Assembly: GCA_016192455.1 (NCBI GenBank)
Contig: JACPUC010000026.1
Location: forward strand, 78,902-142,901
Source: Candidatus Tectimicrobiota bacterium
GTDB taxonomy: Bacteria; JACPUC01
Length of the DNA: 64,000 bases
Direction of reading: 5' to 3'
A program made the translations under genes and the position numbers. Positions 11,898 to 50,044 of this stretch are shown here, in pieces (position 1 is the stretch's first letter; each line of letters opens with the position of its first letter). The notes beneath the pieces were generated by a model. That model ran no database searches. It saw nothing but the letters and a program-made list of their open reading frames with translations, and was not told where the DNA came from.

Positions 11898-12404
11898 ATG
11901 GCTGATGACCTCGAGGTGAGCTGGGCGGAGTACCACCGCAAGGTGGAGCAGCTCGCCCGGATCGTCCGCGACAGCCGCATCGCCCCCGAGCAGATCATCT
12001 GCATCGCCAAGGGAGGTCTGCGCGTCGGCGACATTCTGGCGCGCATCTTCAAGCTGCCGCTCGCCATCCTCGCCGCCGAAGCCTACACTGACCGGAATGA
12101 CCCGCGCGCGCCCAACCGCGTGGTCATCGCCGAGTCCCTGACCAGCACGCGGCAGCCGCTGGGAAGCCGCATCCTCCTCGTCGATGACCTCGTCGATCGC
12201 GGCGGCACCATGCAGGAGGCGGTGGCCTGGCTGCGGCGCCGCGCCGTGACGCCGCCCGCCGAGGTATGGACAGCGGTGATCTGGTACAAGCGCCGCTCGA
12301 TCTTCGCCCCCGACTTTTGGGTTGAAGTCATCGAAGGCGACGAGCCGCCGTGGATCGTCCAGCCCTTCGAGCGCTACGAGCACCTGCGTCCGGAGGACCT
12401 CTGA
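11898..12404 (+). CDS. phosphoribosyltransferase (type I PRTase fold)
   Basis: Internal Met MADDLEVSWAEYHRK preceded by AGGGGTAGGAAC. PRPP-binding loop ILLVDDLVDRGGTM. The upstream 57 codons of the track ORF are GC-rich read-in. Confidence 0.7.
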   Translation: MADDLEVSWAEYHRKVEQLARIVRDSRIAPEQIICIAKGGLRVGDILARIFKLPLAILAAEAYTDRNDPRAPNRVVIAESLTSTRQPLGSRILLVDDLVDRGGTMQEAVAWLRRRAVTPPAEVWTAVIWYKRRSIFAPDFWVEVIEGDEPPWIVQPFERYEHLRPEDL

Positions 12405-13129
12405 TGGCAAGCCGCGCGGCACGCCCCCTTGCGACTCGCTGGGAGCGGAGGCTGCGAAGCGTCTCGACCTGGATTGCCCTGCTGCTGGCGCTTGGGGTGG
12501 GACAGAGCGCCGCCCTGGCGCTGCTCCTGGAGCGCGCGCCCGGCGGCGGCGGGGACTGGCGCCAGGTGGGGAACGCCTCGGAAGGCGTGGGCCCGCTGGG
12601 GGCAACGCCATCGCTCGCGCAGCAGCGGCAGCGGCCCTTCCCCGATGTCTACTACCACGCCGACAAGGTCATCCGCTTCAGGCTTGGCGCGGGTTCGCTG
12701 GCGCTCTTCAATGAGAAGGGGGAGCCCACCCGCGTCCACAATGATCCGCAGCAGGCGCTCGGGCCGCCTGATCACGGCCTGCAAGGCTGGCCGTACACCG
12801 GCGCGGTGTCGCTGGGAAACGGCGGCGAGATCATCCTCGGTTTCCCCACCTGCATCGAGGATGGCGAGGGAGACGATTTCATCGTGCACGAGATCGTCAC
12901 GCCGGAGCGCGCCGAGGTCTTCGGCAGCCTGACGCCGGAGCCGCGGGACTTCCGCCTCCTAGGCACCGCCAGCGGCACGACGCGCTTCGATCTTGCCGCC
13001 GCCGGCGTGCAGCGGGTCTACCTCATCAGGATCGTGGACCAGAACGACGTCCGCACCCCTTCGCCCTTTGCCGGCTTCGATGTGGACGCGGTGGAGGTGA
13101 TCCACCCGTGCCAGCCGTTCACGAGCTGA
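12404..13129 (+). CDS. hypothetical exported/membrane-anchored protein
   Basis: ATG overlaps the PRTase stop (TGATG) with a GGAGGA RBS. N-terminal TM/signal STWIALLLALGVGQSAALALLL. No family recognised. Confidence 0.5.
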   Translation: MASRAARPLATRWERRLRSVSTWIALLLALGVGQSAALALLLERAPGGGGDWRQVGNASEGVGPLGATPSLAQQRQRPFPDVYYHADKVIRFRLGAGSLALFNEKGEPTRVHNDPQQALGPPDHGLQGWPYTGAVSLGNGGEIILGFPTCIEDGEGDDFIVHEIVTPERAEVFGSLTPEPRDFRLLGTASGTTRFDLAAAGVQRVYLIRIVDQNDVRTPSPFAGFDVDAVEVIHPCQPFTS

Positions 13130-13210
13130 GCGCGGGCGCCGCAGGAGCCCATCGGCCAGCCGCCACCGCCGGCCTGGATGACTCATCACCCGTGCAGGGA
13201 GGAGCAGCGC

Positions 13211-13966
13211 ATGCGCCTGAAGGATCGCGTCGTCATCATCACCGGCAGCGCCCAGGGCATCGGCAAGGTGTACGCCCAACGCTGCGCCCGCGAAGGAGCC
13301 AGGGTGGTCCTCACGGACATCCTCGACACCCAGCCGGCGGCGGAGGAGCTGCGCAAGAGCGGGGCCGAGGTGCTCGCCCTGCGGACCGATGTCGCCAAGG
13401 AGCAGAACACCAACGCCATGGCCGCGCAGACGATCGCACGCTTCGGGCGCATCGACGTGCTGGTGAACAACGCGGCCATCTTCGCCACCCTGCCGCTGCA
13501 GGATTTCTGGAACATCCCGGTGACGGAGTGGGACCGCGTCATGGAAGTCAACGTGAAGGGGAACTTCCTCTGCGTCAAGGCGGTGCTGCCGCAGATGCGC
13601 AAGCAAGGGGGCGGCAAGATCATCAACATCGCCTCGGGGGTGGCCTTCAAGGGGGTGCCGTACATGCTCCACTACGTCAGCTCGAAGGGCGCCGTCGTCT
13701 CCCTGACGCGGGCCATGGCGCGCGAGCTGGGACCCTTCAACATCGCGGTGAACGCCATCGCGCCCGGTTACACGATGAGCGAAGGCGTCCTGGCGCGCCC
13801 CGAGCAGGTGAATCAAATGCGCCGCCCCATCGTCGAGAGCCGCTGCTTCAAACGCGACGAGGTGCCCGAGGACCTCACCGGCACCCTCGTCTACCTCGCC
13901 AGCGCCGACAGCGACTTCGTTACCGGACAGATTCTCGCCGTGGACGGCGGCTCCGTCATGCACTGA
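13211..13966 (+). CDS. SDR family oxidoreductase (paralog 1 of tandem pair)
   Basis: MRLKDRVVIITGSAQGIGKVYAQR...NNAA...YVSSKGAV. RBS GGGAGGAG upstream of the internal Met. Confidence 0.85.
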   Translation: MRLKDRVVIITGSAQGIGKVYAQRCAREGARVVLTDILDTQPAAEELRKSGAEVLALRTDVAKEQNTNAMAAQTIARFGRIDVLVNNAAIFATLPLQDFWNIPVTEWDRVMEVNVKGNFLCVKAVLPQMRKQGGGKIINIASGVAFKGVPYMLHYVSSKGAVVSLTRAMARELGPFNIAVNAIAPGYTMSEGVLARPEQVNQMRRPIVESRCFKRDEVPEDLTGTLVYLASADSDFVTGQILAVDGGSVMH

Positions 13967-18477: not shown

Positions 18478-19101
18478 ATGAGCGCGAGGCGCGTCATCAC
18501 CCTGCGCGAGTATACCGACTACCTCTGACCCTGGTGCAACAACTCAGCAGTTCGGCTGCAGAAGATCGCCCAGGAATTCGGGGAGCGGGTTGACGTGGAG
18601 CCGCGCAGCTTCCTGCTGCGTCCGGAGCCGGATGCCACTGCCACCTTCACCTCGTACCGGGACATGCACTGGCGGCAGGCCCAAGCCCAGGAAGAGGCCG
18701 GGGAGTTCACCATCCCCAGCATCGGCACCCCTCTCCCCAGCGGCAGCTTCCCGGGGCAAGAGGCGGCAAAGGCCGCCAAACACCAGGGAACTGCGCTGTT
18801 CCGGGCCTACCATGCGCGCCTCTTTAAGGCGTTCTTCCAGGAGCATCGCAACCTCACCGAGCGCGCCGTTCTTGAAGAGCTGGCCGCCGAGGTCGGCCTT
18901 GATCTCGAACTTTTCCGCGCCGATCTGCAATCGGGCGCCTGCCGCGAAGAGGTCATCGCCGACCACCTCGAAGCCGTCAGCCGCTATGGGATCACCGGAA
19001 TCCCCACCGTCATCGTTGACGGCAAAGAGGCCATCGTCGGAGCCGTGCCGACAGAGGTGTATCGCAGCGTCATTACGCGCCTCCTCGAGGCGCAGCCCTG
19101 A
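18478..19101 (+). CDS. DsbA-family thiol:disulfide oxidoreductase, probable selenoprotein (Sec encoded by in-frame TGA at 18526..18528 in U-P-W-C redox motif)
   Basis: ATG 18478 (RBS GAGGA) then MSARRVITLREYTDYL-TGA-PWCNNSAVRLQ... runs in frame into track ORF 18595..19101 (DsbA C-terminal half ...YGITGIPTVIVDGK). Hairpin TCAGCAG-TTCGG-CTGCAGA at 18544..18562, 15 nt after the TGA. Confidence 0.7.
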
Positions 19102-32638: not shown

Positions 32639-33439
32639 CTAAGTGACATCTGGAAAGTCCGGTTCAAGTTGCAGGACGTCGGCGATCTTCGTGTAGGTGT
32701 TAAAGAGTTGCGCCGTCTGCACCACCTCCCTGATGCCTTTCTCGGTGACGCCGAGGCGCAGGGCCTGGGTGCGGTGCAGATCAAGACCGAAGGGGGAGCG
32801 CGCCGCCACCGCGACTCCCAGGGCGATGCATTCCTTGAACTTGCGCCTCAGGACGCGATCGGCGAAGGCGGCCTGCACCGTGTTCCAAGTGTCGCGCAGG
32901 TAGCCCGGATCGCTTGCCAGGTAGCGATAGACCGCCGGCACGTCCGTCGTGCCGTAGTAGGCATTGATGTCGGCAAAGATCGGCAGCACGCCGCGATCCA
33001 GCTCGTCATCGGCGGGGAGCGGCACAAGCGGCTGACGCGCCCCGCCGGCCGCCGCGAAGGGGAGCGGCAGCACCAGGCTCTCCGCGAGCGACAGGAGGCC
33101 GTTCGTGGCCCCCGTGACGAAGGCGGTCTCGTACCAGACGGCGTCGTTCTCCATGCCCTGCAGCTTCCCGGCTGCGGTGTGGAAGTTCGTTCAGTAGCGA
33201 CAGGAATTCATGCCGCTGACGGCGGCGGCGATGATCTCCTTCTCGGCGCGCCTCAGCTCGCCATCCGGCATGGCGCGCTTCATGGCGCGGCCGTTGTGAT
33301 CGCGGAACTCCGGCAGCGCCAGGAGCACGCGGCCCATCTTCGGGGTGAAGTCGATCTTGAACCAGGCGCGCGAGGCGGCGAAGAGCTTCTGCTCCTCCGC
33401 CGAGTACTCCTCCGCGCCGCGGATACGTACGGTGGCCAT
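32639..33439 (-). CDS. AhpD/carboxymuconolactone-decarboxylase-family protein, probable selenoprotein (TGA at 33193..33191 gives C-R-Y-U-T-N-F-H = CxxUxxxH)
   Basis: Track ORFs 33191..33439(-) (...AAVSGMNSCRY) and 32639..33154(-) (MENDAVW...) are in the same frame, separated only by TGA plus 12 sense codons (TNFHTAAGKLQG). Read-through reconstitutes the AhpD CxxCxxxH active-site spacing with Sec in place of the second Cys. Hairpin GCAGC-CGGGAA-GCTGC at 33175..33160, 15 nt after the TGA. Confidence 0.65.
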
Positions 33440-33685
33440 TGACTCTCCCTACTCCTATCCAGTCTCCAGCGCGGCCGGAACGGCCGCGCTCCTCCATGGC
33501 CTCCTCAGGCTCTTTTGTCAAAGGGTGAGGAGAGGCGTCGGATACCGCAGCACCTTGTCCTGGAGAAGGTGTGACGCCCGGCCTCACTCCGGTTTGAACG
33601 ACTGCGAAACCCGCCGCCGACCTTGAGATCGGCGCAGAAGGACCCCTCCCCCTACACCTGACACGGCAAATGCGGAACGGCGAGG

Positions 33686-35155
33686 TTACGCCTTCACCTT
33701 CTCCGCCTCCGCCCCGGCGAAGATGTCGCTGTACTTGTCCAGAATCTTCGTGCGCAGCTCCTTGCTGGCGATGTTGGTGCGCGGGAACTTGTCCTTCCAG
33801 GCGTAGGGCTTGCAAGCGTTGATGATGACGCGCGAGGTGTTCTGCTGGCCGTGCGCCATCTCGAAGCGCATGTGCGGCGAGATGATGGGGTCGATCGGCG
33901 AGCTCCAGCACTCGCGGATCAGGTCCATGTCCCGCTCCGGCTCGCAGCGCGTGGCCACCGCCCACATGACGTCCTCGAGGCTGGTGATGTCGACGTCCTC
34001 GTCGACGACGATGACGTAGCGGCCGCAGTAGGCGCTCCCCTTGCTCCCCATGGCCACGAGGCCGGCCTGCTTGGCGTGCCCGGCGTAGCGCTGGCGGATC
34101 GACACGACGGTGATGAAGGGGAACCAGCTCCCGAACTGCCACACCCCCTGCACATCCGGCACCCCCACCTTGTTGAGGGCGTCCCAGGTCTCGCCGGCAT
34201 TGAAGGGAACCGTCGTGAACCAGTGGCTCGGGAACTTGAACGGCGGGGCGCCGAGGATGATGGGCTTGCTGCGAAACATCACCGACTTGACGCGGATGAT
34301 GAGCTGCGGGTGCGGCCCCACCGCATAGTAGCCGGTGAACTCGCCGAACGGTCCCTCCATGCGCATCTCTTCGTTGCGCGGCGGGATTTCGCCCTCGATG
34401 ACGATCTCGGCGGTGGCCGGGATGGGGAGGTCGGTGATGACGCCGCGGGTGACCTCGATGGGCGCGCCGCGCAGATGCCCCGCGAAGTCGTACTCACTCA
34501 TGGCGTAGGGGAAGAAGGTGGCGCAGCAGACGAAGAGAAGGGGATCGTGCCCCACCGAGACCGCCACCGGCGCGGCTTCGCCACGTTCGTGGTACTTCTG
34601 CAGGAAGAGGTAGCCGTGTTTGCCGGGGCTGATCCACAAGCCGAGCGTCTTCTCGTCGTGCACTTCCATGCGGTAGGTGGCGAGGTTGATCCAGTCCTCC
34701 CCCGGCGCCCGCATGATCACGGTATCGCCGGTGCCGAGGTAGCGGCCGGGATCGTTCTCATGCCATTTCGGCGAGGGGAAGTCGAAGAGGTTGATCTGGT
34801 CGCCCGTGAGCACATGCTCCTTCACCGGGGCGTCATCTACCCAGCGCGGCGGCACGGGCTTGATCTCCCGCGTGCGCTTGATCCAGTACTTCAGCATCTC
34901 GAACGGCGGCGTCTCCGGGTGCTGATCGAGAATGAGCGCGGTGCGCTTGTTGCTCGCCAGCGGATTGGCGAAGACGCGATGGCCCTTGGGGTAACCGGGG
35001 ATGTCATCAAACAGCGGGGCGGGGCTGTTGGGGATTTCCGCCAGAAGCTCGGTGATGGCGCCGATCTCGAGGTCCCAGTGGGCGCCGCTGATGTGCTTCA
35101 CCTCGCCGATCCTGTCACACGTGTCGATGAACTCACGCAAGTCCTTGAATGGCAT
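33686..35155 (-). CDS. UbiD-family (prFMN-dependent) decarboxylase
   Basis: Internal Met MPFKDLREFIDT with GAGGGG RBS. UbiD-like length and motifs throughout (e.g. ...EGPFGEFTGYY...). Confidence 0.8.
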   Translation of the reverse strand: MPFKDLREFIDTCDRIGEVKHISGAHWDLEIGAITELLAEIPNSPAPLFDDIPGYPKGHRVFANPLASNKRTALILDQHPETPPFEMLKYWIKRTREIKPVPPRWVDDAPVKEHVLTGDQINLFDFPSPKWHENDPGRYLGTGDTVIMRAPGEDWINLATYRMEVHDEKTLGLWISPGKHGYLFLQKYHERGEAAPVAVSVGHDPLLFVCCATFFPYAMSEYDFAGHLRGAPIEVTRGVITDLPIPATAEIVIEGEIPPRNEEMRMEGPFGEFTGYYAVGPHPQLIIRVKSVMFRSKPIILGAPPFKFPSHWFTTVPFNAGETWDALNKVGVPDVQGVWQFGSWFPFITVVSIRQRYAGHAKQAGLVAMGSKGSAYCGRYVIVVDEDVDITSLEDVMWAVATRCEPERDMDLIRECWSSPIDPIISPHMRFEMAHGQQNTSRVIINACKPYAWKDKFPRTNIASKELRTKILDKYSDIFAGAEAEKVKA

Positions 35156-35684
35156 TGTGTCCCCTCTCTTAGCTGGTTCTGGCACCACGGACGGTGGTCT
35201 TGACGGGCGCAGCCGTCTCCCTCCCGTGCACGTCTGCTGCGCCTCTCCTCTTCTTCAACTTGAAGCCTCACCCCTCTGGGCTCTTGGTCGAACCTCGAAC
35301 TCAGGCCGAGAGTCCTTGCGGGGGAGACCTTGGGATCATCCTGAAGAGCGCCGCCAGCCGCGACGCTGCATGTCATATCATACCTTTCGTCAAGGCCGGG
35401 GTCAATTCTCACTGGCGCGAGGTGCGGGTGTCTGGCGGACCGACCTCGCCACGGCCCCGCTCCCTCACCGCATCAGGAGACGCCGCCATCGCCTTCGGAG
35501 GCCACGCCGCCACTACGCGGCCCATCACCCCTATTCTCCCGAACCGTCGGGGAGCGCCGCGCCCCGGGGCGCCTCGCCCACCGCCGTTCCCGGTCGAAAC
35601 GTCCGCCTGACAGGCTTCGCGCCGCGAAAGATGCCGGCCCCTCTGCCGCAAGGCGCAAGAGAACTAGGAATGATACTCAGCATA

Positions 35685-36579: not shown

Positions 36580-38493
36580 TCAGGCGCCGCCGGCCGCCCC
36601 CACGCTCCATCCCTCCACGGCCAGGCTTGTCCCGCGGCGCCCGCGGCGCACGGCGTCGCGGGTCTTGGCGGTCGCCAGCAGGTCGGGCGCCAGGCTCTGC
36701 GGATCAAGTACGACCCCGTAGAGGCGGACCGCGCTCTGCACATCGCAGAGGCCCTGCGCCGCGTCGGCGCTGACAAGGTGCGGCTCGCGCTCCAGCGGAT
36801 CGCCATAGCCGCCGCCGCCGCAGCAGTACGTGACAATCGCGTCGCCGTTCTCCAGCATCGTCATGTCCTTGGCGGCCAGGACGGCACCCTCGACGGCGCC
36901 CATCTCCTCGCTGCCGCCGGGCAGGGAGCGGCCTGCCGCCGGGGCGCCCTGCGGCTGCCATGCCCTGCGGTAGACGACGTTCGCGTTGACGCTGCCGGGA
37001 AGGCCTCCCATGAGGCCGCGCGCTTCGCTCTGGTTGATGCCGTGGCCGAAGACGAAGCAGCGCACCGGCGAGGCGGCCTTGTGGACCAGGCGCCCCAGCT
37101 CCAGGCCCGCGCCGCCGCGGTACTTTCCGGGTCCCAGGGTGGCGGGCTGCTCCTTGCGGTAGAGGTAGAGGAGCGGGTAGAGCCGCTCCACCGTCTCGAT
37201 ATTCGACATCGCCATCTTCGGCGAGCCCGGCGTGCCCTCCACGTCGAGGCCGTCGCGCGTGCTGCGGGCGCCGCCTCCTCCGCCCGTGTCGAGCATCGTG
37301 GCCGTGAAGTAGCGGCCCCGCTGGTCGAGGCCGGAGAAGTTCGCCCCGATCCACCCCGGCCAGCCCGTCGCCATGAGCTCCCCGCGGTAGCGCTCGCTGC
37401 AGGCGTACATCTTCGCGATCGCCTGCATGCAGACGTTGAAGGTCATGAAGGTGGCCGCCACCGTCGCCGCGCTCACGGCGGCCGGGTGGCGGGCGTTGTT
37501 CACGGTCCCCTCCTCCGAGATGATCTCCACCAACCCTGAGATCGCCCCGGTGGCCCACGGCATGTCGTAGCAGAGCAGCGTCAGCATGGCGGCCATGACC
37601 CCGCCCCACAGGCCGGTGTAGGTGCAGTTGATCATGCCGGGCGCCTGGGGGCTGGTGCCGCGGAAGTCGAAGGTGAGGCGCTCGCCGCGCTTCGTCATCG
37701 CCACCTTGATCTCGTAGAGCGCGTCGGTGCTGCCGTCGTGGTCGATGTAGCCGTGCTCGTACCAGGCGCCGTCGGGCAGCTCCGCCAGCCGCCGCCCCAG
37801 GCGACGCCGCACGTCCTCGAGTAGCCGCTCCTGCACCGCGAGGAAGGTGTCGACGCCGTACGTCTCGATGATCTCGGCGATGCGCTGACGCGTCTTGTTG
37901 ATCGCCGCGATGCGGGCGCGCAGGTCGAGGGCGTTGAACTCCGGGGTGCGGCTGTTGCGGATGAACATGCGCTCGACGTCGGGCCGCAGCCGGCCTGCTT
38001 CGACCACCTTCAGCGGCGGCAGCACCGGCGCCTCGCCGTAGATGTCGCGGGCGCCGACGACGAAGCTCCCCGGCACCGGCCCCCCCACGTCCATCTCGTG
38101 CATGCAGAGGCCGGTCCAGCAAACGACGCGGCCCTCGTGGTGGATCGGCGCCACGACGATGTAGTCGTTCATGTGCACCGCCCCCACCCAGGGGTCGTTG
38201 GTGAGGAACATATCCCCCTCGTGGATACCCGGGTCGCGGCTGTAGTCCTTGACGATGTTCTTCACCGCGATGTCAATGGAGAGCGACAGGCGCGTCACAT
38301 AGACGCCGATGAAGAGAGTGTCGCCCCTGTACGACATAAGGGCGCTGTTGAAGTCGTACGCCTCGTAGACCACCGGCGAGCCCGACATCTGCGCCGCCAG
38401 CAGCCCCTGCTCGTCGTTGATGGCCCACAACCGGTGCCGCAGCACCTCGTAGGTGATAGGATCGAGGGTCTCCCCTCGTGGTGCAGCCTGCAT
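36580..38493 (-). CDS. hydantoinase B/oxoprolinase-family (HyuB; ketone carboxylase alpha-like) paralog 2
   Basis: MQAAPRGETLDPITYEVLRHRLWAINDEQG... is collinear with and near-identical in stretches to 39137..41038. RBS GGAG. Confidence 0.85.
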   Translation of the reverse strand: MQAAPRGETLDPITYEVLRHRLWAINDEQGLLAAQMSGSPVVYEAYDFNSALMSYRGDTLFIGVYVTRLSLSIDIAVKNIVKDYSRDPGIHEGDMFLTNDPWVGAVHMNDYIVVAPIHHEGRVVCWTGLCMHEMDVGGPVPGSFVVGARDIYGEAPVLPPLKVVEAGRLRPDVERMFIRNSRTPEFNALDLRARIAAINKTRQRIAEIIETYGVDTFLAVQERLLEDVRRRLGRRLAELPDGAWYEHGYIDHDGSTDALYEIKVAMTKRGERLTFDFRGTSPQAPGMINCTYTGLWGGVMAAMLTLLCYDMPWATGAISGLVEIISEEGTVNNARHPAAVSAATVAATFMTFNVCMQAIAKMYACSERYRGELMATGWPGWIGANFSGLDQRGRYFTATMLDTGGGGGARSTRDGLDVEGTPGSPKMAMSNIETVERLYPLLYLYRKEQPATLGPGKYRGGAGLELGRLVHKAASPVRCFVFGHGINQSEARGLMGGLPGSVNANVVYRRAWQPQGAPAAGRSLPGGSEEMGAVEGAVLAAKDMTMLENGDAIVTYCCGGGGYGDPLEREPHLVSADAAQGLCDVQSAVRLYGVVLDPQSLAPDLLATAKTRDAVRRGRRGTSLAVEGWSVGAAGGA

Positions 38494-38663
38494 GGTTCTC
38501 ACTCCGCGGCGGTTCCCGCCGCCGCATTGTTCCACCGATACGGAAGATCGGCATCTCGGTGCGGCCCCGGATTCGCTTCCTGCCTGCCTCGAAAGTAGGC
38601 GCGGACTTGGTCGATTTCACGTGATGATCAAGATGAAGGTCATGCGGCCAAGTGTCCTTCAGC

Positions 38664-38996
38664 TCTGCGCTCTCTGTGCCTCCGCGGTTCAATGGAGTGC
38701 GCCGCAGAGACATAGAGGACGCGGAGAAGGGAGGGGAAGGCGCCACCGACGCAGCGGGGATGCACAGCGATTTCCGCCTGCCTCGGCGTTCAGCCGTGGC
38801 CCCTCGCATCCCCATGGTAGGGGCGGTTCGCGAACCGCCCCTACGGTCGCTGGGATGAAAGCCTGCCGCGAACATAGGTACCTACGTGGTCTATCGCACG
38901 CGATGCTGAGGCTCCCTGGCACGTCCTACACTCTCTGCGATCTCTGCGCCGCTGCGGTTCAATGGAGTGCACCGCAGAGACGCAGAGGACGCGGAG
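38664..38996. repeat. pair of ~63-bp direct repeats (38664..38726 and 38933..38996, about 90% identical) flanking a REP-like palindrome (38818..38845) inside a 600-bp intergenic spacer
   Basis: Read directly: CTCTGCG(C/A)TCTCTG(T/C)GCC(T/G)C(C/T)GCGGTTCAATGGAGTGC(G/A)CCGCAGAGAC(A/G)(T/C)AGAGGACGCGGAG. Confidence 0.65.
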
Positions 38997-39136
38997 GTTT
39001 CGACAGGCAAGATGCTTGTCCCAGGCGCACTTGGTAGCAAAAAATTCTCGACGAGGATCGGCAAGCCGGGCCGGCCAGCATACCCCATTTTCATCGGTTC
39101 GCGGGCAGGCGACCCGCCCATGCGCAGCTATCCTGA

Positions 39137-41038
39137 TTATGCCGCCGCCACCGGCGTACTCGTCGCCCGGCGCTCGCGGCGGATGGCGTCGCGGCACACG
39201 GCGGTGGCTTGCAGATCAGGCTTGCAGGTCTCGGCATCGACGATGACGCCGTAGATGCGCTCGGCAAGGTCGCGGTCGCACAGCCCCAGGGCAACGTCCT
39301 CGGCGACGAGGTACGGATCGCGCTCCAGCGGATCGCCGTAGCCGCCGCCGCCGCAGCAGTAGGTGACGAGGACGTCGCCGTTGTCCATCGTGGTGTGGTC
39401 CTTCGCCGCCATGACGCGGCGTTCTCCCGACCCGAACTCCTCCACGCCGCCCGGCAGCCGCGTGAGCCCTGCCGTGCCCGGCCCGCCGGCGCCGGGGCGC
39501 AGGCTCGGCTGCCGCAGCAGGATGTTGCTGTTGACGCTGGCCGGCAGGCCCCCCAGGAGGCCGCGCGACTCCGGCTGGCTGACGGCATGCCCCACCACGA
39601 GGTTGCGCAGCGGCTGCGGCGCCTTGTGCACCAGGCGCGCCGTCTCCAGGCCCACGCCGCCGCGGAACTTGCCGGCGCCGGGGGTGTGCGGGTGCTGCTT
39701 GCGATAGAGGTAGAGGATGGGGTAGAGGCGCTCGTTGGTCTCGATGTTCGAGATCGCCATCTTCGGCGAGCCCGGCACCCCCTCCACGTCGAGGCCGTCG
39801 CGGTTGCTGCGGGCGCCGCCGCCGCCTGCCTGGTCCATCAGCATGGCGGTGAAGAAGCGCCCGTGCTGGTTCAGGCCGGAGTAAAGCGCTCCGGTCCAGC
39901 CCGGCCAGCCCACGGCGATGAGCTCGCGGCGATAGCGCTCGCTGCAGGCGTACATCTTCGAGATCGCCTGCATGCAGACGTTGCCGGTCATGAAGGCGGC
40001 GCTGATCGTCGCCATGCTCACCGCCGCCGGATGCCGGGCGTTGTTCACGGTGCCCTCTTCCGAGATCACCTCGACGATGTCGTAGAGCGCCCCGCTGGCC
40101 CACGGCATGTCGTAGCAGACGAGGTTGAGCAGCGCCACCATGACGCCGCCCCACAGGCCGGTGTAGGTGCAGTTGATCATGCCGGGCGCCTGCGGGCTGG
40201 TGCCGCGGAAGTCGAAAATGAGGCGCTCGCCGCGCTTCGTCATCGCCAGTTTCACCTCGTAGATCTCGTTGCGGTTGCCGTCGTGATCGATGTAGCCGTG
40301 CTCGCACCAAGTGCCGTCGGGCAGTTCGGCGAGACGGCGGCGCACGCGGCGCTGCACGTCGGCGATGATCTGCTCCTGCACGACGAGGAAGGTCTCGACG
40401 CCGTAGGCCTCGATGACCTCGAGAAGGCGCTGGCGGGTCTTGTTGATGGCGGCGATGCGGGCGCGCAGGTTGAGGGCGTTGAGCTCCGGCGTGCGGCTGT
40501 TGCGCAGGAAGAGGCGCTCGACGTCCGGGCGCAACCGCCCCTTCTCGACGATCTTCATTGGCGGCATCACCGGCGCCTCGCCGTAGACGTCGGTGGCCCC
40601 CACCACGAAGCTCCCCGGCATCGGCCCGCCCACGTCGTTCTCGTGCATGCAGAGGCCCGTCCAGCAGACGATGCGCCCGCCGTGGTAGATCGGCGCCACC
40701 ACGGTGTAGTCGTTCATGTGGATGGCGCCGAACCAGGGGTCGTTGGTGAGGAACATGTCGCCGTCATTGATGCCGGGGTCCTTGCCGAACTCCTTCAGGA
40801 GGTTCTTCACGGTGATGTCGATGGTCAGCGAAAGGCGCGTGGTGTAGACGCCGACAAAGAGGGAATCGCCGCGCTGCGTCAGCAGGGCGCTGTTGAAGTC
40901 GTACGCCTCGTAGACCACCGGCGAGCCCGACATCTGCGCCGCCAGCAGACCCTGCTCGTCGTTGATGGCCCAGAGGCGGTGGCGCAGCACCTCGTAGGTG
41001 ATGGGATCGATGCCCGGCTGCGTGTTTGCGTCGTTCAT
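39137..41038 (-). CDS. hydantoinase B/oxoprolinase-family (HyuB; ketone carboxylase alpha-like) paralog 1
   Basis: MNDANTQPGIDPITYEVLRHRLWAINDEQG... RBS GAGAAGGA. Confidence 0.85.
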   Translation of the reverse strand: MNDANTQPGIDPITYEVLRHRLWAINDEQGLLAAQMSGSPVVYEAYDFNSALLTQRGDSLFVGVYTTRLSLTIDITVKNLLKEFGKDPGINDGDMFLTNDPWFGAIHMNDYTVVAPIYHGGRIVCWTGLCMHENDVGGPMPGSFVVGATDVYGEAPVMPPMKIVEKGRLRPDVERLFLRNSRTPELNALNLRARIAAINKTRQRLLEVIEAYGVETFLVVQEQIIADVQRRVRRRLAELPDGTWCEHGYIDHDGNRNEIYEVKLAMTKRGERLIFDFRGTSPQAPGMINCTYTGLWGGVMVALLNLVCYDMPWASGALYDIVEVISEEGTVNNARHPAAVSMATISAAFMTGNVCMQAISKMYACSERYRRELIAVGWPGWTGALYSGLNQHGRFFTAMLMDQAGGGGARSNRDGLDVEGVPGSPKMAISNIETNERLYPILYLYRKQHPHTPGAGKFRGGVGLETARLVHKAPQPLRNLVVGHAVSQPESRGLLGGLPASVNSNILLRQPSLRPGAGGPGTAGLTRLPGGVEEFGSGERRVMAAKDHTTMDNGDVLVTYCCGGGGYGDPLERDPYLVAEDVALGLCDRDLAERIYGVIVDAETCKPDLQATAVCRDAIRRERRATSTPVAAA

Positions 41039-41126
41039 GAGCGCAGTCCTTCTCAACACGGCGAGCGCCATGCTATTCCCGCACCACCGCGCCGCCGCTC
41101 GGGGTCATGCTTCGCCGCAAAATAGG

Positions 41127-43220
41127 TCACGGCCACGTAATGCTGAGATTCCCATAGGCATCGACGCGCGCCAGGGACGCGACCGGCAGGACGATGGTGT
41201 CCCCCATGCGCTCGATGACGGCCGGGCCGCTGATCTCGTGCCCGAAGCGCAGCGCCTCGCCGCTGTAAATCGGCGTGTCATGGAACTCGCCGTCGAAGTA
41301 GGCCCGCCGGGAGCCGCGCAGGGCCGCGGAGGCATCGGCGGGGACCGCCGCCTCCTGGCGCTCGATCCGCGGCGTAAACACCTCGTGGGTGCCGTCGACG
41401 CGGAAGGTGATGAACTCCGTGCCCGCCTCGTGGTAGGCGCCCCCCTTGCCGTAGAGCTCCTCGTACTGCACGTGGAAGCGCGCCACGATCGCCTCCGCCA
41501 CCTCGGGGGTGAAGGGCTGCCGCGGCGTCGCCACTCCCAGCTCGTGCACCTGCATCTGGTAGCGCATGAAGACGCTGCGCTCGAGGGTGACCCCCGCCGC
41601 GGCGATCCCCTCGTCCTCGAACTGCGCCAGCACCTGGCGCTCGAGGTCGGCATAGATGCCGTCGATGCCGCGGCAGACCTCCGCCCCGTACGGGCTCTTC
41701 GTCGGGAAGGAGCGCTCGGCGGTGTGCACGAGGTCGGAGGTGATGATGCCGAAGGCCGAGAAGACCGTCGAGTTGGCGAGAACGCAGACCGAGTGGGCGC
41801 CGATGTCGCGCCCGAAGAAGGGGGCGTGGGTCGGCCCGGCGCCGCCGTAGGAGAAGAGGATGAACTGCCGTGGGTCGTAGCCGCGCTCGATGGTCGAGCG
41901 CCGCACCAGGTCGGCCATCTGCGCGTTGGTGATGCGGAAGATACCGGCCGCCGCCGCTACCACGTCCATGCCGAGCCGCGCCGCCAGGCCCTCGAGCGCC
42001 TGTTCGGCACGCCCGCGGTCGAGCCGCATGCGCCCGCCGAGGAAGTTCTCCGCGTTGAGGTAGCCGAGGACGATGTTCGCGTCCGTAACGGTCGGCTGCT
42101 CGCCGCCGCGGCCGTAACAGGCCGGTCCCGGCATCGCCCCGGCGCTGGCGGGGCCGACGTGCAAGAGGTTGTCCTCGTCCACCCAGGCGATGCTGCCGCC
42201 GCCGGCGCCGATGGTCTTGATGAGAACCTTCGGCGCCAGGAAGGTGTACTGCTCGACCACCGGCTCTTTCTCGAGCTGCAAGGAGCCGCCGGCCACCAAG
42301 CTGACGTCGAAGGAGGTGCCTCCCACGTCGGTGCAGATGATGTTCGCCGCCTCGTAGAGCTGCCCGAAGTAGCGCGACCCCAGCGTGCCGCCGACCGGCC
42401 CCGAGTCGAGGAGCATGACGCCGCGACGCTGCGCGAGCTGCGTCGTCGTGAGGCCGCCGTTCGACTGCATGACGAGGAGCGGCCGGCGGTAGCCTTCGCC
42501 GCGCAAGGCCGTCTCCAGCCGGCCCAGATAGTCCGCCACGCGCGGCCCGAGGTAGGCGTTCAGCAGCGTGGTCACCGAGCGCTCGTACTCGCCGAGCACC
42601 GGGGCGATCTGCGACGACAGGCTGACGAAGAGGTCGGGGTGCTGGCGCGCCAGGTAGTCGCCGACGGCTTCCTCGTGGGCGGGATTGATGAAGGACCAGA
42701 GGAAGCAGACAGCGACGGCGCGCACCTCCCTGGCTCGCAAGGCGTCCACGGCGCGCTTCACGTCGTCGAGGTCGAGGGGCACGATGACCTCGCCGGCGAA
42801 GTCGATGCGCTCGGCCACCCCCATGATGCAGGGGCGGGTGATGATCGGCGGCTCCGGCTTGCGCATGGCCACGGCATGGATCATCTCGCGCTCCGAGAGG
42901 CCGGCGCGCTTCACCATGGCGCGGCCGATCGGCACCGTATCCTCGTGGCCGCGAGTTGTCAGCAGCCCCGTCTTCACCCCCTTGCGCTCGATCATGGCGT
43001 TGGTGGCGATGGTGCAGCCGTGCATGAAGTGCTCCGTCTGCGCCAGCAGCGCGCCGCGGCTCAGCTCAAGCTGCCGCGCGGCCACCTCCACGACCTCGAG
43101 GACGCCGCGGGCGGGATCCTCCGGCGTGGTGTCGCCCTTGGCAATCCAGGTGCGGCCCTGGGCATCCATGACGACGCAATCCGTGAACGTCCCCCCGATA
43201 TCGACGGCGATCTTGTACAT
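41127..43220 (-). CDS. hydantoinase A/oxoprolinase-family (HyuA; ketone carboxylase beta-like)
   Basis: Internal Met MYKIAVDIGGTFTDCVV (ASKHA ATPase fold N-terminus) with AGGAGG RBS. Confidence 0.85.
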   Translation of the reverse strand: MYKIAVDIGGTFTDCVVMDAQGRTWIAKGDTTPEDPARGVLEVVEVAARQLELSRGALLAQTEHFMHGCTIATNAMIERKGVKTGLLTTRGHEDTVPIGRAMVKRAGLSEREMIHAVAMRKPEPPIITRPCIMGVAERIDFAGEVIVPLDLDDVKRAVDALRAREVRAVAVCFLWSFINPAHEEAVGDYLARQHPDLFVSLSSQIAPVLGEYERSVTTLLNAYLGPRVADYLGRLETALRGEGYRRPLLVMQSNGGLTTTQLAQRRGVMLLDSGPVGGTLGSRYFGQLYEAANIICTDVGGTSFDVSLVAGGSLQLEKEPVVEQYTFLAPKVLIKTIGAGGGSIAWVDEDNLLHVGPASAGAMPGPACYGRGGEQPTVTDANIVLGYLNAENFLGGRMRLDRGRAEQALEGLAARLGMDVVAAAAGIFRITNAQMADLVRRSTIERGYDPRQFILFSYGGAGPTHAPFFGRDIGAHSVCVLANSTVFSAFGIITSDLVHTAERSFPTKSPYGAEVCRGIDGIYADLERQVLAQFEDEGIAAAGVTLERSVFMRYQMQVHELGVATPRQPFTPEVAEAIVARFHVQYEELYGKGGAYHEAGTEFITFRVDGTHEVFTPRIERQEAAVPADASAALRGSRRAYFDGEFHDTPIYSGEALRFGHEISGPAVIERMGDTIVLPVASLARVDAYGNLSITWP

Positions 43221-43728
43221 GGTGCGCTCGTCCACCTCCTGCGGCATCGGCGGCGCGTGCCACCGGCGGGCGCCCCGAAGGGTCGCTGCGATCACGATGG
43301 CTGCGCTCCCCCACGGCGATGCTGACAATTCTACTCAGGTTCCGCGTTGGCACAAGGGCGCTGCTCTCGAACGGCCGCGCCCCGTTTCGTTCTTCATCAG
43401 CGCCCGGCGAGCCCCACGGTCGGGAGATAGCGAGAATTCATCGAGGCGGCTGCGCAGCTCTTGCTTTCTTCGCAGAACTGTGGAAATATTATTTTCCCCT
43501 GGGGCAGAGGGCCGCCGGGGTTTTCTGTGCGGCGCTCCGGCGGCCGGCGTGGAAGGGTGCTGTCCCGCTGGCGCCACGAAGGAGGCACTGAAGAGGCGAC
43601 GGAGAGAGCGCGTTCCCGGCGGGGTTCCTCAGCGGGCCCTACCGCCGCGACGTGCTCAGGGCGTCTGCGTCTTTCCTGCTGCGCATCGCGTGCCTTGACC
43701 TTGTTGTCGATGTTGAGGAGACCCGTCC

Positions 43729-44763
43729 ATGAAAGCAGTTGTCATCCACGAGCACGGCGACCCGGAGGTCCTGAAGGAAGAGGAGTACCCAACACCGCAA
43801 CTCGGCCCCGAAGACGTGCTGGTGAAGGTGAAGGCGTGCGGCGTCAACCAGGCAGACTTGATGATCCGACGCGGCGACGTGCGCATGTATCCCAAGCTGC
43901 CCCACATCCTCGGTAGCGAGATCTCCGGCGTCGTCCACAGCGTCGGCAGCGCGGTGACGCAGTGGAAGGGGGGAGAGCGGGTCATCGTCTACCCCGGATT
44001 CGGCTGCGGGCACTGCGAGTTCTGCGTCAAGGGGCATCTCTATAGCTGCAATACCTACAAGTACTTCGGCACCCAGATGCAGGGGACTTACTCGGAGTTC
44101 GTGAAGGCTCCCTGGTACAACATGGTCCCCCTGCCGGAAGAAGTCTCCTTCGTGGAAGGGGCTGCCATCCCCATGGTGATGCTCACCTCGTGGCACATGG
44201 TGGTGGACCAGGCGAACGTGCGGCCCGGCGAGATCGTCCTGGTGCACGCCGCCGGTAGCGGCATCGGCTCGGCCTCGATCCAGATCGCCAAGCTCTGCGG
44301 CGCCACCGTCATCGCCACCGCCGGCTCCGACGACAAGGAGGAGCTGGCCAGAAGCCTCGGCGCCTCGCACTTCATCAACTACCGCAAGACCGACTTCCGC
44401 GAAGAGGTGGGGAAGATCACCAACAAGCGCGGCGTGGATGTGGTCATCGAGCACACCGGCGAGTTCACCTGGGACAAGAGCGTGCGCTCGCTGGTGAAGC
44501 ACGGCCGCCTCGTCGTCTGCGGCGCCACCTCGGGGCATAACGGCTACACGGATATCCGCTACGTCTACTACAAGCACCTCAACATCATCGGCTCGACGCT
44601 GGGCACCATCGAGAACCTGAAGCACGCGCTGCAGTATGTCGCCGCGGGCCGCATCCGCACCGTGGTCGATCGGGTCTATCCCATCAGCGAGGTGCGCAAG
44701 GCGCACGAGATCATGGAAGCCCGCCAGAACAAGGGCAAGCAGGTGCTGCAGATGTGGGACTAG
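43729..44763 (+). CDS. zinc-binding MDR-family alcohol dehydrogenase/quinone oxidoreductase
   Basis: MKAVVIHEHGDPEVL...GSEISGVV...GCGHCEFCVKGHLYSC (structural Zn Cys cluster), AAGSGIGS Rossmann. Confidence 0.85.
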   Translation: MKAVVIHEHGDPEVLKEEEYPTPQLGPEDVLVKVKACGVNQADLMIRRGDVRMYPKLPHILGSEISGVVHSVGSAVTQWKGGERVIVYPGFGCGHCEFCVKGHLYSCNTYKYFGTQMQGTYSEFVKAPWYNMVPLPEEVSFVEGAAIPMVMLTSWHMVVDQANVRPGEIVLVHAAGSGIGSASIQIAKLCGATVIATAGSDDKEELARSLGASHFINYRKTDFREEVGKITNKRGVDVVIEHTGEFTWDKSVRSLVKHGRLVVCGATSGHNGYTDIRYVYYKHLNIIGSTLGTIENLKHALQYVAAGRIRTVVDRVYPISEVRKAHEIMEARQNKGKQVLQMWD

Positions 44764-46486: not shown

Positions 46487-46555
46487 GCCGCGGGCGGGCG
46501 CCGCCGGTCCGCGCCGCGTGCCCACGGCGAGCTTGGGGATCGGGGAAGCACGGCC

Positions 46556-47467
46556 ATGACCCTCCCATCCAGCGTCAGCATTGTCGAGGTGGGGCCGCGC
46601 GACGGTTTGCAGGGAGAGGCGCGGCACGTCGCCACCGCCGACAAGATCGCCCTCATCAACCGCCTGAGCGCCTGCGGCCTGCGGCGCCTCGAGGTGTCGT
46701 CGTTCGTCAGCGCCAAGGCCATCCCGCAGCTTGCCGACGCGGCCGAGGTGCTGGCCGGCATCGAGCGCGCCCCGGGCGCGCGCTACAGCGTTCTGGTGGC
46801 GAACGAGCGCGGCTACGAGAGCGCCGCGGCGGCGGGCGCCGACGAGGTGGCCGTCTTCCTGTCGGCCAGCGAGGCCCACAACCAGCTCAACGTCGGCAAG
46901 AGCATCGCGGACACCCTGGCGAAGCTGCGGCCGGTGGCGCGGCGGGCGGCGGCGGACGGGGTGCCGGTGCGCGGCTACGTCTCCACGGTCTTCGGCTGCT
47001 CCCTCGCCGGCAAGGTGGAGGCGGCGCGGGTGGAGCGCATCTGCGGCGAGCTTGCCGACATGGGGGTGGGGGAAATCTCGCTGGGGGACACCATCGGCGT
47101 GGCGCACCCGCCGCAGGTTCAGGCCATGATCGAGGGGCTGCGCGCGCGGCTTGGCGACCTGCCACTGGCGCTGCATCTCCACGATACCCTCGGGCGCGGG
47201 CTGGCGAACGTCTGGGCGGGATTGCAGGCGGGGATTCGCGTCTTCGACAGCTCGGTCGGCGGGCTGGGAGGCTGCCCCAATACGCCGGGAGGGGCCGGCA
47301 ACATCGCCACGGAGGACCTCGTGAGCCTGCTGCGGGCCATGGGCATCGCCTGCGGCGTGGAGGAGGAGGCGATCCGCGCGGTGGCGCGCTTCGCGGCGTC
47401 GCTCGTCGATCACCCCCTGGCCAGCCACTGCGCTTACGCCGGCGGCACCGCGGAGGAGAGAGCGTGA
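46556..47467 (+). CDS. hydroxymethylglutaryl-CoA lyase
   Basis: SIVEVGPRDGLQ..., DTIGVAHP, LHLHDTLG, GGLGGCP motifs. Confidence 0.85.
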   Translation: MTLPSSVSIVEVGPRDGLQGEARHVATADKIALINRLSACGLRRLEVSSFVSAKAIPQLADAAEVLAGIERAPGARYSVLVANERGYESAAAAGADEVAVFLSASEAHNQLNVGKSIADTLAKLRPVARRAAADGVPVRGYVSTVFGCSLAGKVEAARVERICGELADMGVGEISLGDTIGVAHPPQVQAMIEGLRARLGDLPLALHLHDTLGRGLANVWAGLQAGIRVFDSSVGGLGGCPNTPGGAGNIATEDLVSLLRAMGIACGVEEEAIRAVARFAASLVDHPLASHCAYAGGTAEERA

Positions 47468-49297: not shown

Positions 49298-50044
49298 TCA
49301 GCATCGCTCCCGAGTCTTGCGACTTCGCTTGGCAGGCGAGATGCCGGGTTCCTTCGCGTCGTGGTGTTGCTGCCGCCGTTCATGCAGAGGGCGCCGTGCA
49401 CGTGACGCGCGCTCCGGGGCAGCCAGGCCATAGAGGTCCAGCGTGGGTTGGGAGCCGTTCGGACCACCGCGGCCGCCTCGCTCCGCGAGGCGCTGCAGGG
49501 CCCAGGCGCACCAGTCACGGTACATCCGTTCGTAGCGCAATCCCCACTCCAGACAGAGGAGCGGCCCCAGCAGCGAGTCGTTCGGCAGGGCGCGCAGGAC
49601 GCCGTAGCGCGCCTCGATCTGCTCCTTGATCGCCTCGTAGGTCGCCAGTCGCTCGGCATGGGCGCGTGCGGCCAAGGCCAGCAACGCCTCGCCGTCCGCC
49701 GCGGCCATCGCGTCGATGCCATAAACGCGCAGGAGGAGGTCGTCCTTCATCTCGAAGCGAATGAGCGCCGCCTTCTGCCATGCCGCCAGCGCTTCGCGGC
49801 CGCGTCGGGTGATGGCGTAGATGGTCCTGTTCGGGCGATGGGTCTGGATCTCGCATTTCGAGCGCAGCAGCGCTTCGCGTTCCAGCCGGCGCAGCTCGGG
49901 ATAAATCTGCGCCAGATGGGCGTGCCAGCAGAACATCACCGATTGCTGGAAGCGCTGACGGATGTCGTAGCCGGTCAGGGGCTTGCGGCGCAGCAGCTCG
50001 AGGAGGGCGTAGCGGAGCATGCCAGGTTCCCACAATAGGGACAT
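49298..50044 (-). CDS. PadR-family transcriptional regulator (extended C-terminal domain)
   Basis: Winged-helix N-terminus ALLELLRRKPLTGYDIRQRF...IYPELRRLEREALL. Immediately upstream of the diiron gene on the same strand. Confidence 0.65.
   Translation of the reverse strand: MSLLWEPGMLRYALLELLRRKPLTGYDIRQRFQQSVMFCWHAHLAQIYPELRRLEREALLRSKCEIQTHRPNRTIYAITRRGREALAAWQKAALIRFEMKDDLLLRVYGIDAMAAADGEALLALAARAHAERLATYEAIKEQIEARYGVLRALPNDSLLGPLLCLEWGLRYERMYRDWCAWALQRLAERGGRGGPNGSQPTLDLYGLAAPERASRARRPLHERRQQHHDAKEPGISPAKRSRKTRERC

Follow-up and report, generated by a model that had tools for sequence, protein, structure and literature searches.

A predicted tandem AhpD-core selenoprotein with an in-frame UGA and a conserved candidate SECIS hairpin in a Tectomicrobia genome

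We analysed a 64,000-nt stretch from a Candidatus Tectimicrobiota bacterium (contig JACPUC010000026.1, positions 78,902 to 142,901; hereafter the window) and find that two neighbouring open reading frames (ORFs) on its minus strand very probably form one gene for a redox selenoprotein of the AhpD/carboxymuconolactone decarboxylase (CMD) superfamily, in which an internal TGA is the codon for selenocysteine (Sec). The assignment is based on comparison of sequences and combines four lines of evidence: (i) the TGA is invariant among related loci, (ii) the sequence is under coding constraint in one frame on both of its sides, (iii) a hairpin directly behind it is constrained at the nucleotide level and covaries in distant relatives, and (iv) the TGA falls on a catalytic position of the AhpD active site. 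An earlier note on the window, made from the letters alone, had proposed read-through of a single gene and UGA as Sec, and both proposals are borne out by these data.

Reading frame and conservation of the TGA

The earlier note had placed an 82-codon ORF, a TGA at 33193..33191, 12 sense codons and a 171-codon ORF in a single minus-strand frame, and every coordinate was confirmed on reading the sequence. The elements of the gene are as follows.

32639..33439, minus strand: complete read-through coding sequence (CDS) of 266 residues including Sec83, a predicted tandem AhpD-core/CMD selenoprotein (reading frame, two CMD/AhpD matches, codon-position divergence)
33445..33448, minus strand: Shine-Dalgarno-like GGAG motif, 5 nt 5′ of the ATG at 33439..33437 (read from the sequence)
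33439..33194, minus strand: upstream 82-aa ORF, beginning with this ATG and ending ...AAVSGMNSCRY (read from the sequence)
33191..33193, minus strand: in-frame TGA, the proposed Sec codon, residue 83 (TGA in 172 of 172 loci; aligned with the second Cys of CxxC in PDB 2ouw_A)
33154 to stop TAG 32641..32639, minus strand: downstream 171-aa ORF, starting MENDAVW (read from the sequence)

We read the codon corresponding to residue 83 in 172 related loci, and it is TGA in all of them; TAA, TAG and sense codons do not occur. The first set of 86 sequences, all with TGA, comprises the window, loci L001–L005 and 80 species-representative genomes. A set of 78 metagenome contigs, retrieved by means of a peptide pattern that lies upstream of the codon and hence favours neither the stop nor the hairpin, carries TGA in 78 of 78 cases. 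Relatives are present in at least 116 species-level genomes; the 80 of these that were read all have the same in-frame TGA, and the gene is probably split likewise in these genomes. The host lineages are Methylomirabilota/Rokubacteria, Dehalococcoidia, Acidobacteriota and Tectomicrobia. One typical bacterial-type family member (L063, DATIWG010000032.1) lies in a metagenome-assembled genome (MAG) labelled Nitrosotalea sp., an ammonia-oxidising archaeon; the contig has probably been mis-binned, and an archaeal selenoprotein with a bacterial-type element is less likely.

Mean pairwise divergence among about 82 orthologues at codon positions 1/2/3 is 0.16/0.15/0.38 upstream of the TGA and 0.16/0.16/0.38 just downstream of it, so that the third position diverges about 2.4 times as much as the first two on either side. 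This equal coding signature in the same frame points to protein-level purifying selection on both flanks. It also bears on the possibility that the locus is a pseudogene, or that an ordinary CxxC AhpD-like gene received its TGA through faulty sequencing or assembly. The source is a MAG, in which errors occur; the same TGA in 172 independently assembled loci from several phyla, together with purifying selection on either side of it, effectively refutes this explanation and leaves it a negligible probability.

Taken at face value, the TGA is a true stop that ends an 82-residue peptide, followed by an independently initiated protein of ~171–183 residues with which the peptide perhaps assembles non-covalently. 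The deposited annotation and metagenome gene calls describe the locus in this way, as an 82-residue 'hypothetical' ORF and a shortened CMD protein; the NCBI entry P0001 (171 aa, 'carboxymuconolactone decarboxylase family protein') equals the 171-residue piece of the window. In 74 of 85 loci, moreover, the 14 codons that follow the TGA include an ATG, GTG or TTG. This would-be start, however, varies in position and kind and is missing in the other 11 loci, the position aligned with M95 is M, L, I, Y or F among relatives, and neither a GGAG-like motif nor a conserved start codon is found 5′ of the 171-aa ORF. A genuine stop would further have to be TGA and never TAA or TAG throughout the 172 loci, and would split a single AhpD-core domain between two catalytic residues. 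The 12 intervening codons, TNFHTAAGKLQG in the window, are the most conserved stretch of the protein, carry the catalytic His and coincide exactly with the frozen, covarying hairpin.

Protein databases hold the family as fragments. A word-indexed search of 5.8 billion proteins returned 16 matches, all of them C-terminal pieces of 165–193 residues, most of which begin no more than 3 residues past the TGA position. When the 82-residue piece was compared exhaustively with 1.84 billion cluster representatives using phmmer, all 24 matches that reach residue 82 end there in C-x-Y. The earlier note had looked to homologues for signs of two genuinely separate genes; all predicted homologues are cut at the TGA codon. 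TGA is also the commonest stop among coding-like ORFs of the window (25 of 43), and the genetic code is therefore standard. With an invariant TGA, coding on both sides and a standard code, pseudogene and assembly error are excluded, and two separate genes are very unlikely.

The hairpin behind the UGA

A hairpin, GCAGC-CGGGAA-GCTGC, begins 15 nt past the TGA at 33175..33160, exactly where the earlier note had placed it. Two folds were distinguished, the smaller one common to the family and the larger one seen in the window only.

33160..33175, minus strand: core of the putative selenocysteine insertion sequence (SECIS), a 5-bp stem GCAGC/GCUGC with the 6-nt loop CGGGAA, RNA positions 19–34 with the U of UGA as position 1 (fold common to 81 sequences)
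33149..33184, minus strand: extended fold, with a CC/GG extension and bulged A (33177..33157) and a lower stem UUCCA/UGGAG (33184..33180 with 33153..33149) (folding)

The extended fold has a folding energy of −15.3 kcal/mol for 48 nt. Its lower stem is not kept among the relatives in the 81-sequence alignment and is probably not part of the functional element.

The core hairpin is constrained beyond what the protein demands. Over 81–82 unique orthologues at roughly 45–50% protein identity, hardly any change is seen in the 17 nt GCAGCCGGGAAGCUGCA. Ala89 is encoded by GCA in 78 of 82 orthologues, a codon used at 0–5% in other conserved Ala columns, and Ala90 (GCC), Gly91 (GGG), Lys92 (AAG) and Leu93 (CTG) each keep one codon in 82 of 82, compared with a codon entropy of 0.9–1.8 bits in other invariant Ala, Gly and Leu columns. 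The sole variant tolerated among the 82 is GCA to GCG, by which an A-U pair becomes G-U. The partner of A21 is U32, at the second position of the Leu codon, and those of G33 and G30 are the second bases of the two Ala codons. Every synonymous site of the stem pairs with a non-synonymous one, so that a compensatory change costs an amino-acid change; on the evidence of the alignment, the stem is frozen by the overlap of protein and RNA constraints. The synonymous sites C24 and G27 of the loop are unpaired yet equally invariant, which suggests that the loop sequence itself is recognised, presumably by SelB.

Where the amino acids do change, pairing is maintained. In L172 the stem reads GCU...CAG, a Leu to Gln substitution that keeps a U-A pair, and in L154 and L156 the stem is remodelled together with Thr and Val substitutions. 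Relatives at 33–50% identity have the same TGA followed by hairpins of different sequence, which keep the register or lie close to it and whose loops are GGU, GGGA, GGUC and GGC; the GCUGC/GCAGC stem is likewise present among them. Distant relatives (33–40% identity) provide examples in the identical register (CUGCUUCA-GGGA-UGAAGCAG, GCCUCC-GGUC-GGAGGU and GCCGC-CGUGCU-GCGGC) and slightly shifted (ACUUCUGC-GGU-GCAGAAGU and GUCCGCCC-GGC-GGGCGGGC). When 48 sequences are aligned, 98.8% of the cells are paired, and at two of the five pairs both bases have changed in a compensatory way (AU/UA/CG/GU and GC/UA); neither any of 500 shuffles nor any slid register comes near this. A further relative, L174, has its SECIS shifted, with the loop 25 nt after the UGA, and a Tyr in place of the His of the second protein unit described below.

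Published criteria for the bacterial SECIS (bSECIS) comprise a loop of 3–9 nt, an upper stem of 4–16 bp, a G in the first two loop positions, a UGA-to-loop distance of 16–37 nt and a minimum free energy of at most −7.5 kcal/mol (PMC13188914). The hairpin of the window agrees with all of them, having a 6-nt loop, a stem of 5 bp (7 with the extension), G at loop position 2, a UGA-to-loop distance of 20 nt and −8.5 kcal/mol for the 21-nt element. Identification of the hairpin 15 nt after the UGA as a bacterial SECIS is thus supported by its geometry, its nucleotide-level constraint and its covariation.

Active site, second unit and proposed chemistry

For profile searches of the 266-residue read-through protein, Cys was set at the TGA position. 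Pfam CMD (PF02627) matches two stretches (69.5 bits against a cutoff of 23, 2.6e-19), and the NCBIfam model of the AhpD core domain matches across the TGA, which together with the equal divergence on its flanks argues for one gene. The protein features are listed below.

33146..33262, minus strand: match to NCBIfam TIGR00778 ahpD_dom ('AhpD family core domain') across the TGA, residues 60–98 (54.2 bits against a cutoff of 27.8)
33179..33238, minus strand: active-site segment with E68 (33238..33236), C80 (33202..33200), Y82 (33196..33194), U83 and H87 (33181..33179) (five AhpD proton-relay positions)
32672..32902, minus strand: second, degenerate CMD/AhpD-core unit, residues 180–256 (Pfam CMD, 2.6e-19)
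32797..32774, minus strand: pseudo-active site of the second unit, E203...S215-P-F-G218-L-D-L-H222 (Ser and Gly at the Cys positions)

The relay of the AhpD-like family consists of Glu, Cys, Tyr or His, Cys and His, with the Glu 12 residues ahead of the first Cys (PMC3141380). Read through the TGA, the window protein has the motif C80-R-Y-U83-T-N-F-H87, in which the earlier note had recognised the CxxCxxxH spacing of AhpD/CMD proteins, and E68, 12 residues before C80, completes the five-residue relay. E68, C80, Y82, the TGA and H87 are each kept in 82 of 82 unique orthologues. The best match among solved structures is the single-unit 'AhpD core' protein PDB 2ouw_A (E 8e-10), in which ...NSCSYCAHSHTAA... 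is aligned to ...NSCRY[U]TNFHTAA... of the query, so that U stands on the second Cys of CxxC; over a longer segment, ...REMIYLAVSTANSCSYCAHSHTAAARAKGM of 2ouw is aligned to ...KEIIAAAVSGMNSCRY[U]TNFHTAAGKLQGM. U also stands on the second Cys of 6k40 and of other structures in the alignment.

Both halves of the query align separately to the single-unit 2ouw, which identifies the protein as a tandem duplication of the AhpD-core unit. The second unit retains the Glu (E203) and the His (H222), and its cysteines are replaced by Ser (S215) and Gly (G218). Throughout the family, members at 34–46% identity included, S215 and G218 do not vary and H222 hardly varies. This unit is a degenerate copy with a presumably structural role. 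Other arrangements were seen among relatives: single AhpD-core Sec proteins of ~133 residues (L086 and L087), and a reversed order in L089 (P0046), where the degenerate unit comes first and the Sec unit second.

The read-through protein scores below the cutoffs of the more specific models, namely TIGR01926 peroxid_rel (51.6 against 81.8), TIGR04169 (45.6 against 120), NF041238 AhpD_rel_CFYUT (32.5 against 175) and NF041047 GSU3128 (23.5 against 110). By these scores it is related to the named models of AhpD-related selenoproteins and a member of none. A 4-carboxymuconolactone decarboxylase (PcaC) was rejected at 12.2 bits for TIGR02425 against an equivalog cutoff of 155.7; the NCBI name reflects the Pfam domain only.

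The chemistry is likely thiol/selenol-based redox, by analogy with AhpD. In the mechanism that we propose, the ribosome would read the UGA at codon 83 as Sec, with the hairpin recruiting SelB and Sec-tRNA(Sec) as a SECIS. In the manner of AhpD, H87, E68 and a water molecule would activate the selenolate of Sec83 for attack on a hydroperoxide or on an oxidised protein thiol or disulfide. The adduct would then be resolved by Cys80 to give an intramolecular selenenylsulfide, from which an external reductant or reductase would regenerate the protein. Redox enzymes usually carry Sec at the attacking position. The earlier note had instead assigned Sec to the place of the resolving Cys. In Mycobacterium tuberculosis AhpD, the second Cys (Cys133) cross-links with AhpC and Cys130 is its partly buried partner (PMC6626918), a precedent that speaks against this assignment and would place Sec at the attacking position. 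In the Burkholderia enzyme, on the other hand, the first Cys is reportedly more important, which makes the attacking role of Sec83 a provisional assignment.

A candidate for the reductant emerges from the neighbourhood of relatives. In 15 of 83 species genomes, a gene resembling the catalytic subunit of ferredoxin:thioredoxin reductase (FTR; Pfam FeThRed_B, 6.5e-24; motif CPC...CxC...CHC) is found on the same strand no more than about 2 kb away, on the upstream side in 14 and on the downstream side in 1. It ends 4–12 nt before the start of the selenoprotein in seven of them (L014, L022, L028, L032, L033, L040 and L050); the other genomes with this neighbour are L052, L054, L056, L067, L071, L072, L081 and L083. 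From this proximity, the FTR-like protein is a possible physiological reductant. The FTR-like neighbour is absent from the window. No neighbour is common to more than about a quarter of the 83 loci, and only the FTR-like gene looks meaningful.

The genes flanking the selenoprotein gene in the window encode a UbiD-family decarboxylase (33686..35188) and an Amidohydro_2 protein, and no ahpC was found among the ORFs scanned close to it. The minus-strand stretch 36583..43334, upstream of the UbiD-family gene, contains a cluster of three genes, two of the Hydantoinase_B and one of the Hydantoinase_A/oxoprolinase type. Catabolic genes for amidohydrolases, hydantoinases and CN-hydrolases dominate the window.

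Probable selenocysteine use in the genome and relation to known systems

Alternatively, near-cognate or suppressor decoding, or a reassigned code, could place a standard amino acid (Trp, Cys or Gly) at the UGA. Two database proteins, P0035 and P0056, have W at the Sec position (...ACEYWTVDH...), and no Sec machinery was seen in the 64-kb window. The W entries are most likely artefacts of a gene caller that translated TGA under genetic code 4, which is also the simplest account of them. The code is standard here, a TGC or TGG would be the cheaper sense codon and occurs in 0 loci, the position is that of a catalytic Cys of CxxC, where Sec is a known substitute, and the hairpin agrees with the bSECIS criteria and covaries. 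We consider decoding as a standard amino acid highly improbable and UGA as a Sec codon the far better account.

Several observations count against Sec insertion nonetheless, or reduce the weight of the evidence for it. The 64-kb window holds no tRNA-Sec (ARAGORN; a search at Rfam gathering thresholds found nothing), and Pfam scans of its 20 largest ORFs, whose products belong to general metabolism, repair and the cell wall (hydantoinases, amidohydrolases, UbiD, an AddB-like nuclease, a helicase and others), found no SelA, SelB or SelD domain. The folding energy of the hairpin is no better than chance (z = −0.16) in DNA of 67% G+C, and for this reason proves nothing when taken alone. One contig, L095, has a broken stem pair. 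Orthologues share ancestry, so that the locus counts do not represent independent events. Finally, according to a review, almost every selenoprotein has Cys-form relatives, and for this AhpD-like family none was found in three large searches, two of which were limited to the 8000 candidates sharing most words; the usual Cys/Sec pair is found only at the superfamily level, in PDB AhpD-core proteins with Cys at the position of U.

ARAGORN called three tRNAs of other types in the window, Leu-cag (13081..13166), Gly-acc (44197..44290, 94 nt) and Pro-cgg (46738..46835, 98 nt), and the Rfam gathering search found no tRNA at all. All three calls overlap coding-like stop-to-stop ORFs (12326..13129/13130..13966, 43717..44763 and 46487..47467, respectively) and are probably false positives in G+C-rich DNA.

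A scan of the window for in-frame TGA codons left two genes, the AhpD-like gene and a DsbA-like gene on the opposite strand. The same-frame junction at 49300..49298 was rejected as an ordinary gene boundary, at which the upstream ORF ends at a TGA and the downstream ORF has its own ATG.

18478..19101, plus strand: DsbA-like gene, second Sec candidate, motif YTDYL-U-PWC, TGA at 18526..18528, hairpin at 18547..18559 (Pfam DSBA across the TGA, 9e-25)

Cys is aligned with U (CPWC) in 72 of 88 homologues of this gene, as in the examples YSDYL-CPWC; the closest homologues are N-terminally truncated. DsbA-like UxxC proteins are a known selenoprotein family. The hairpin, GCAG-UUCGG-CUGC, has a loop (UUCGG or UCG) without G in its first two positions and so fits the bSECIS consensus less well. 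The earlier note had counted two Sec candidates with matching SECIS geometry, equal spacing and the same stem flavour. The second candidate is indeed supported by its Cys homologues, and GCAG/CUGC is common to both stems; the geometry agrees only roughly, with the stem 15 nt from the UGA in the AhpD-like gene vs 18 nt in the DsbA-like gene, and the loops differ. A lineage-wide SECIS model built from the two hairpins, as the note had suggested, is ruled out: the covariance model of the AhpD-like element finds only its own gene in the window (56 bits) and misses the DsbA-like hairpin. From their sequences, the two genes likely mark this Tectomicrobia genome as a Sec user. Sec-rich genomes are known from related lineages, with 63 selenoprotein genes predicted in a Methylomirabilota MAG (PMC13188914).

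The gene is best called an unannotated member or subfamily of the CxxU AhpD-like selenoproteins, and since these are already catalogued it adds little that is new in kind. Its notable features are the tandem with a degenerate second unit, the failure to find a Cys form and the cross-phylum invariance of the SECIS, none of which would greatly surprise specialists. A more far-reaching interpretation would make it a distinct, possibly obligately Sec-dependent two-domain AhpD-core family without Cys relatives, with a locked SECIS, a loop whose invariance in at least four phyla suggests sequence-specific recognition by SelB, and re-reduction by the upstream FTR-like protein in part of the family. 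We regard this as rather doubtful; if true, it would define a new ferredoxin-to-selenoprotein redox relay. Read correctly, the gene extends the selenoprotein inventories of Tectomicrobia, Methylomirabilota/Rokubacteria, Dehalococcoidia and Acidobacteriota by one. The family offers a clean natural case in which overlapping constraints on protein and RNA keep a SECIS frozen, and these uncultured lineages could thereby gain a well-defined element for SelB binding.

The closest known systems are the CxxU AhpD-like (COG2128/TIGR01926) and CMD-domain selenoproteins, described in the metagenome surveys of the Sargasso Sea in 2005 and of GOS (Global Ocean Sampling) in 2008 (PMC1088965, PMC2398784; PMC13188914). 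The window protein shares with them the fold family, Sec as the second residue of the CxxU pair, a SECIS inside the CDS right after the UGA, and genes that are typically mis-annotated as truncated ORFs. It differs from them in scoring below their model cutoffs and in consisting of two AhpD-core units, the second of them degenerate. The known families have hundreds of Cys forms, whereas none was detected for the family of the window.

M. tuberculosis AhpD (Cys130-Ser-His-Cys133...His137, Glu118) has the same relay spacing, with Glu 12 residues before Cys, CxxC and His at +4, and the attack-and-resolve chemistry is probably common to both proteins. The similarity is limited to the two-helix active-site motif, and TIGR00777 ahpD gives only 14.4 bits. 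In contrast to AhpD, the window protein has Sec at the position of Cys133, and no ahpC adjoins its gene; at the position of His132 it has Tyr, as does PA0269 of Pseudomonas aeruginosa. The 'alkylhydroperoxidase AhpD core' protein of Rhodospirillum rubrum (PDB 2ouw, ~138 residues) is nearly identical in the CxxCxxxH segment and, like the window protein, functionally uncharacterised; it differs in being a single unit with Cys instead of Sec.

For the RNA element, the reference is the Escherichia coli fdhF element, the prototype of the bacterial SECIS consensus used as the bSECISearch model. Some relatives of the window gene have the loop GGUC, which we take to be that of fdhF. The loop in the window, CGGGAA, departs from the consensus, with a flanking C and A that are unable to pair. 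Features shared with the consensus are a position in the CDS, an apical loop that follows the UGA by 20 nt, a G-rich start of the loop and an upper stem of 5–7 bp.

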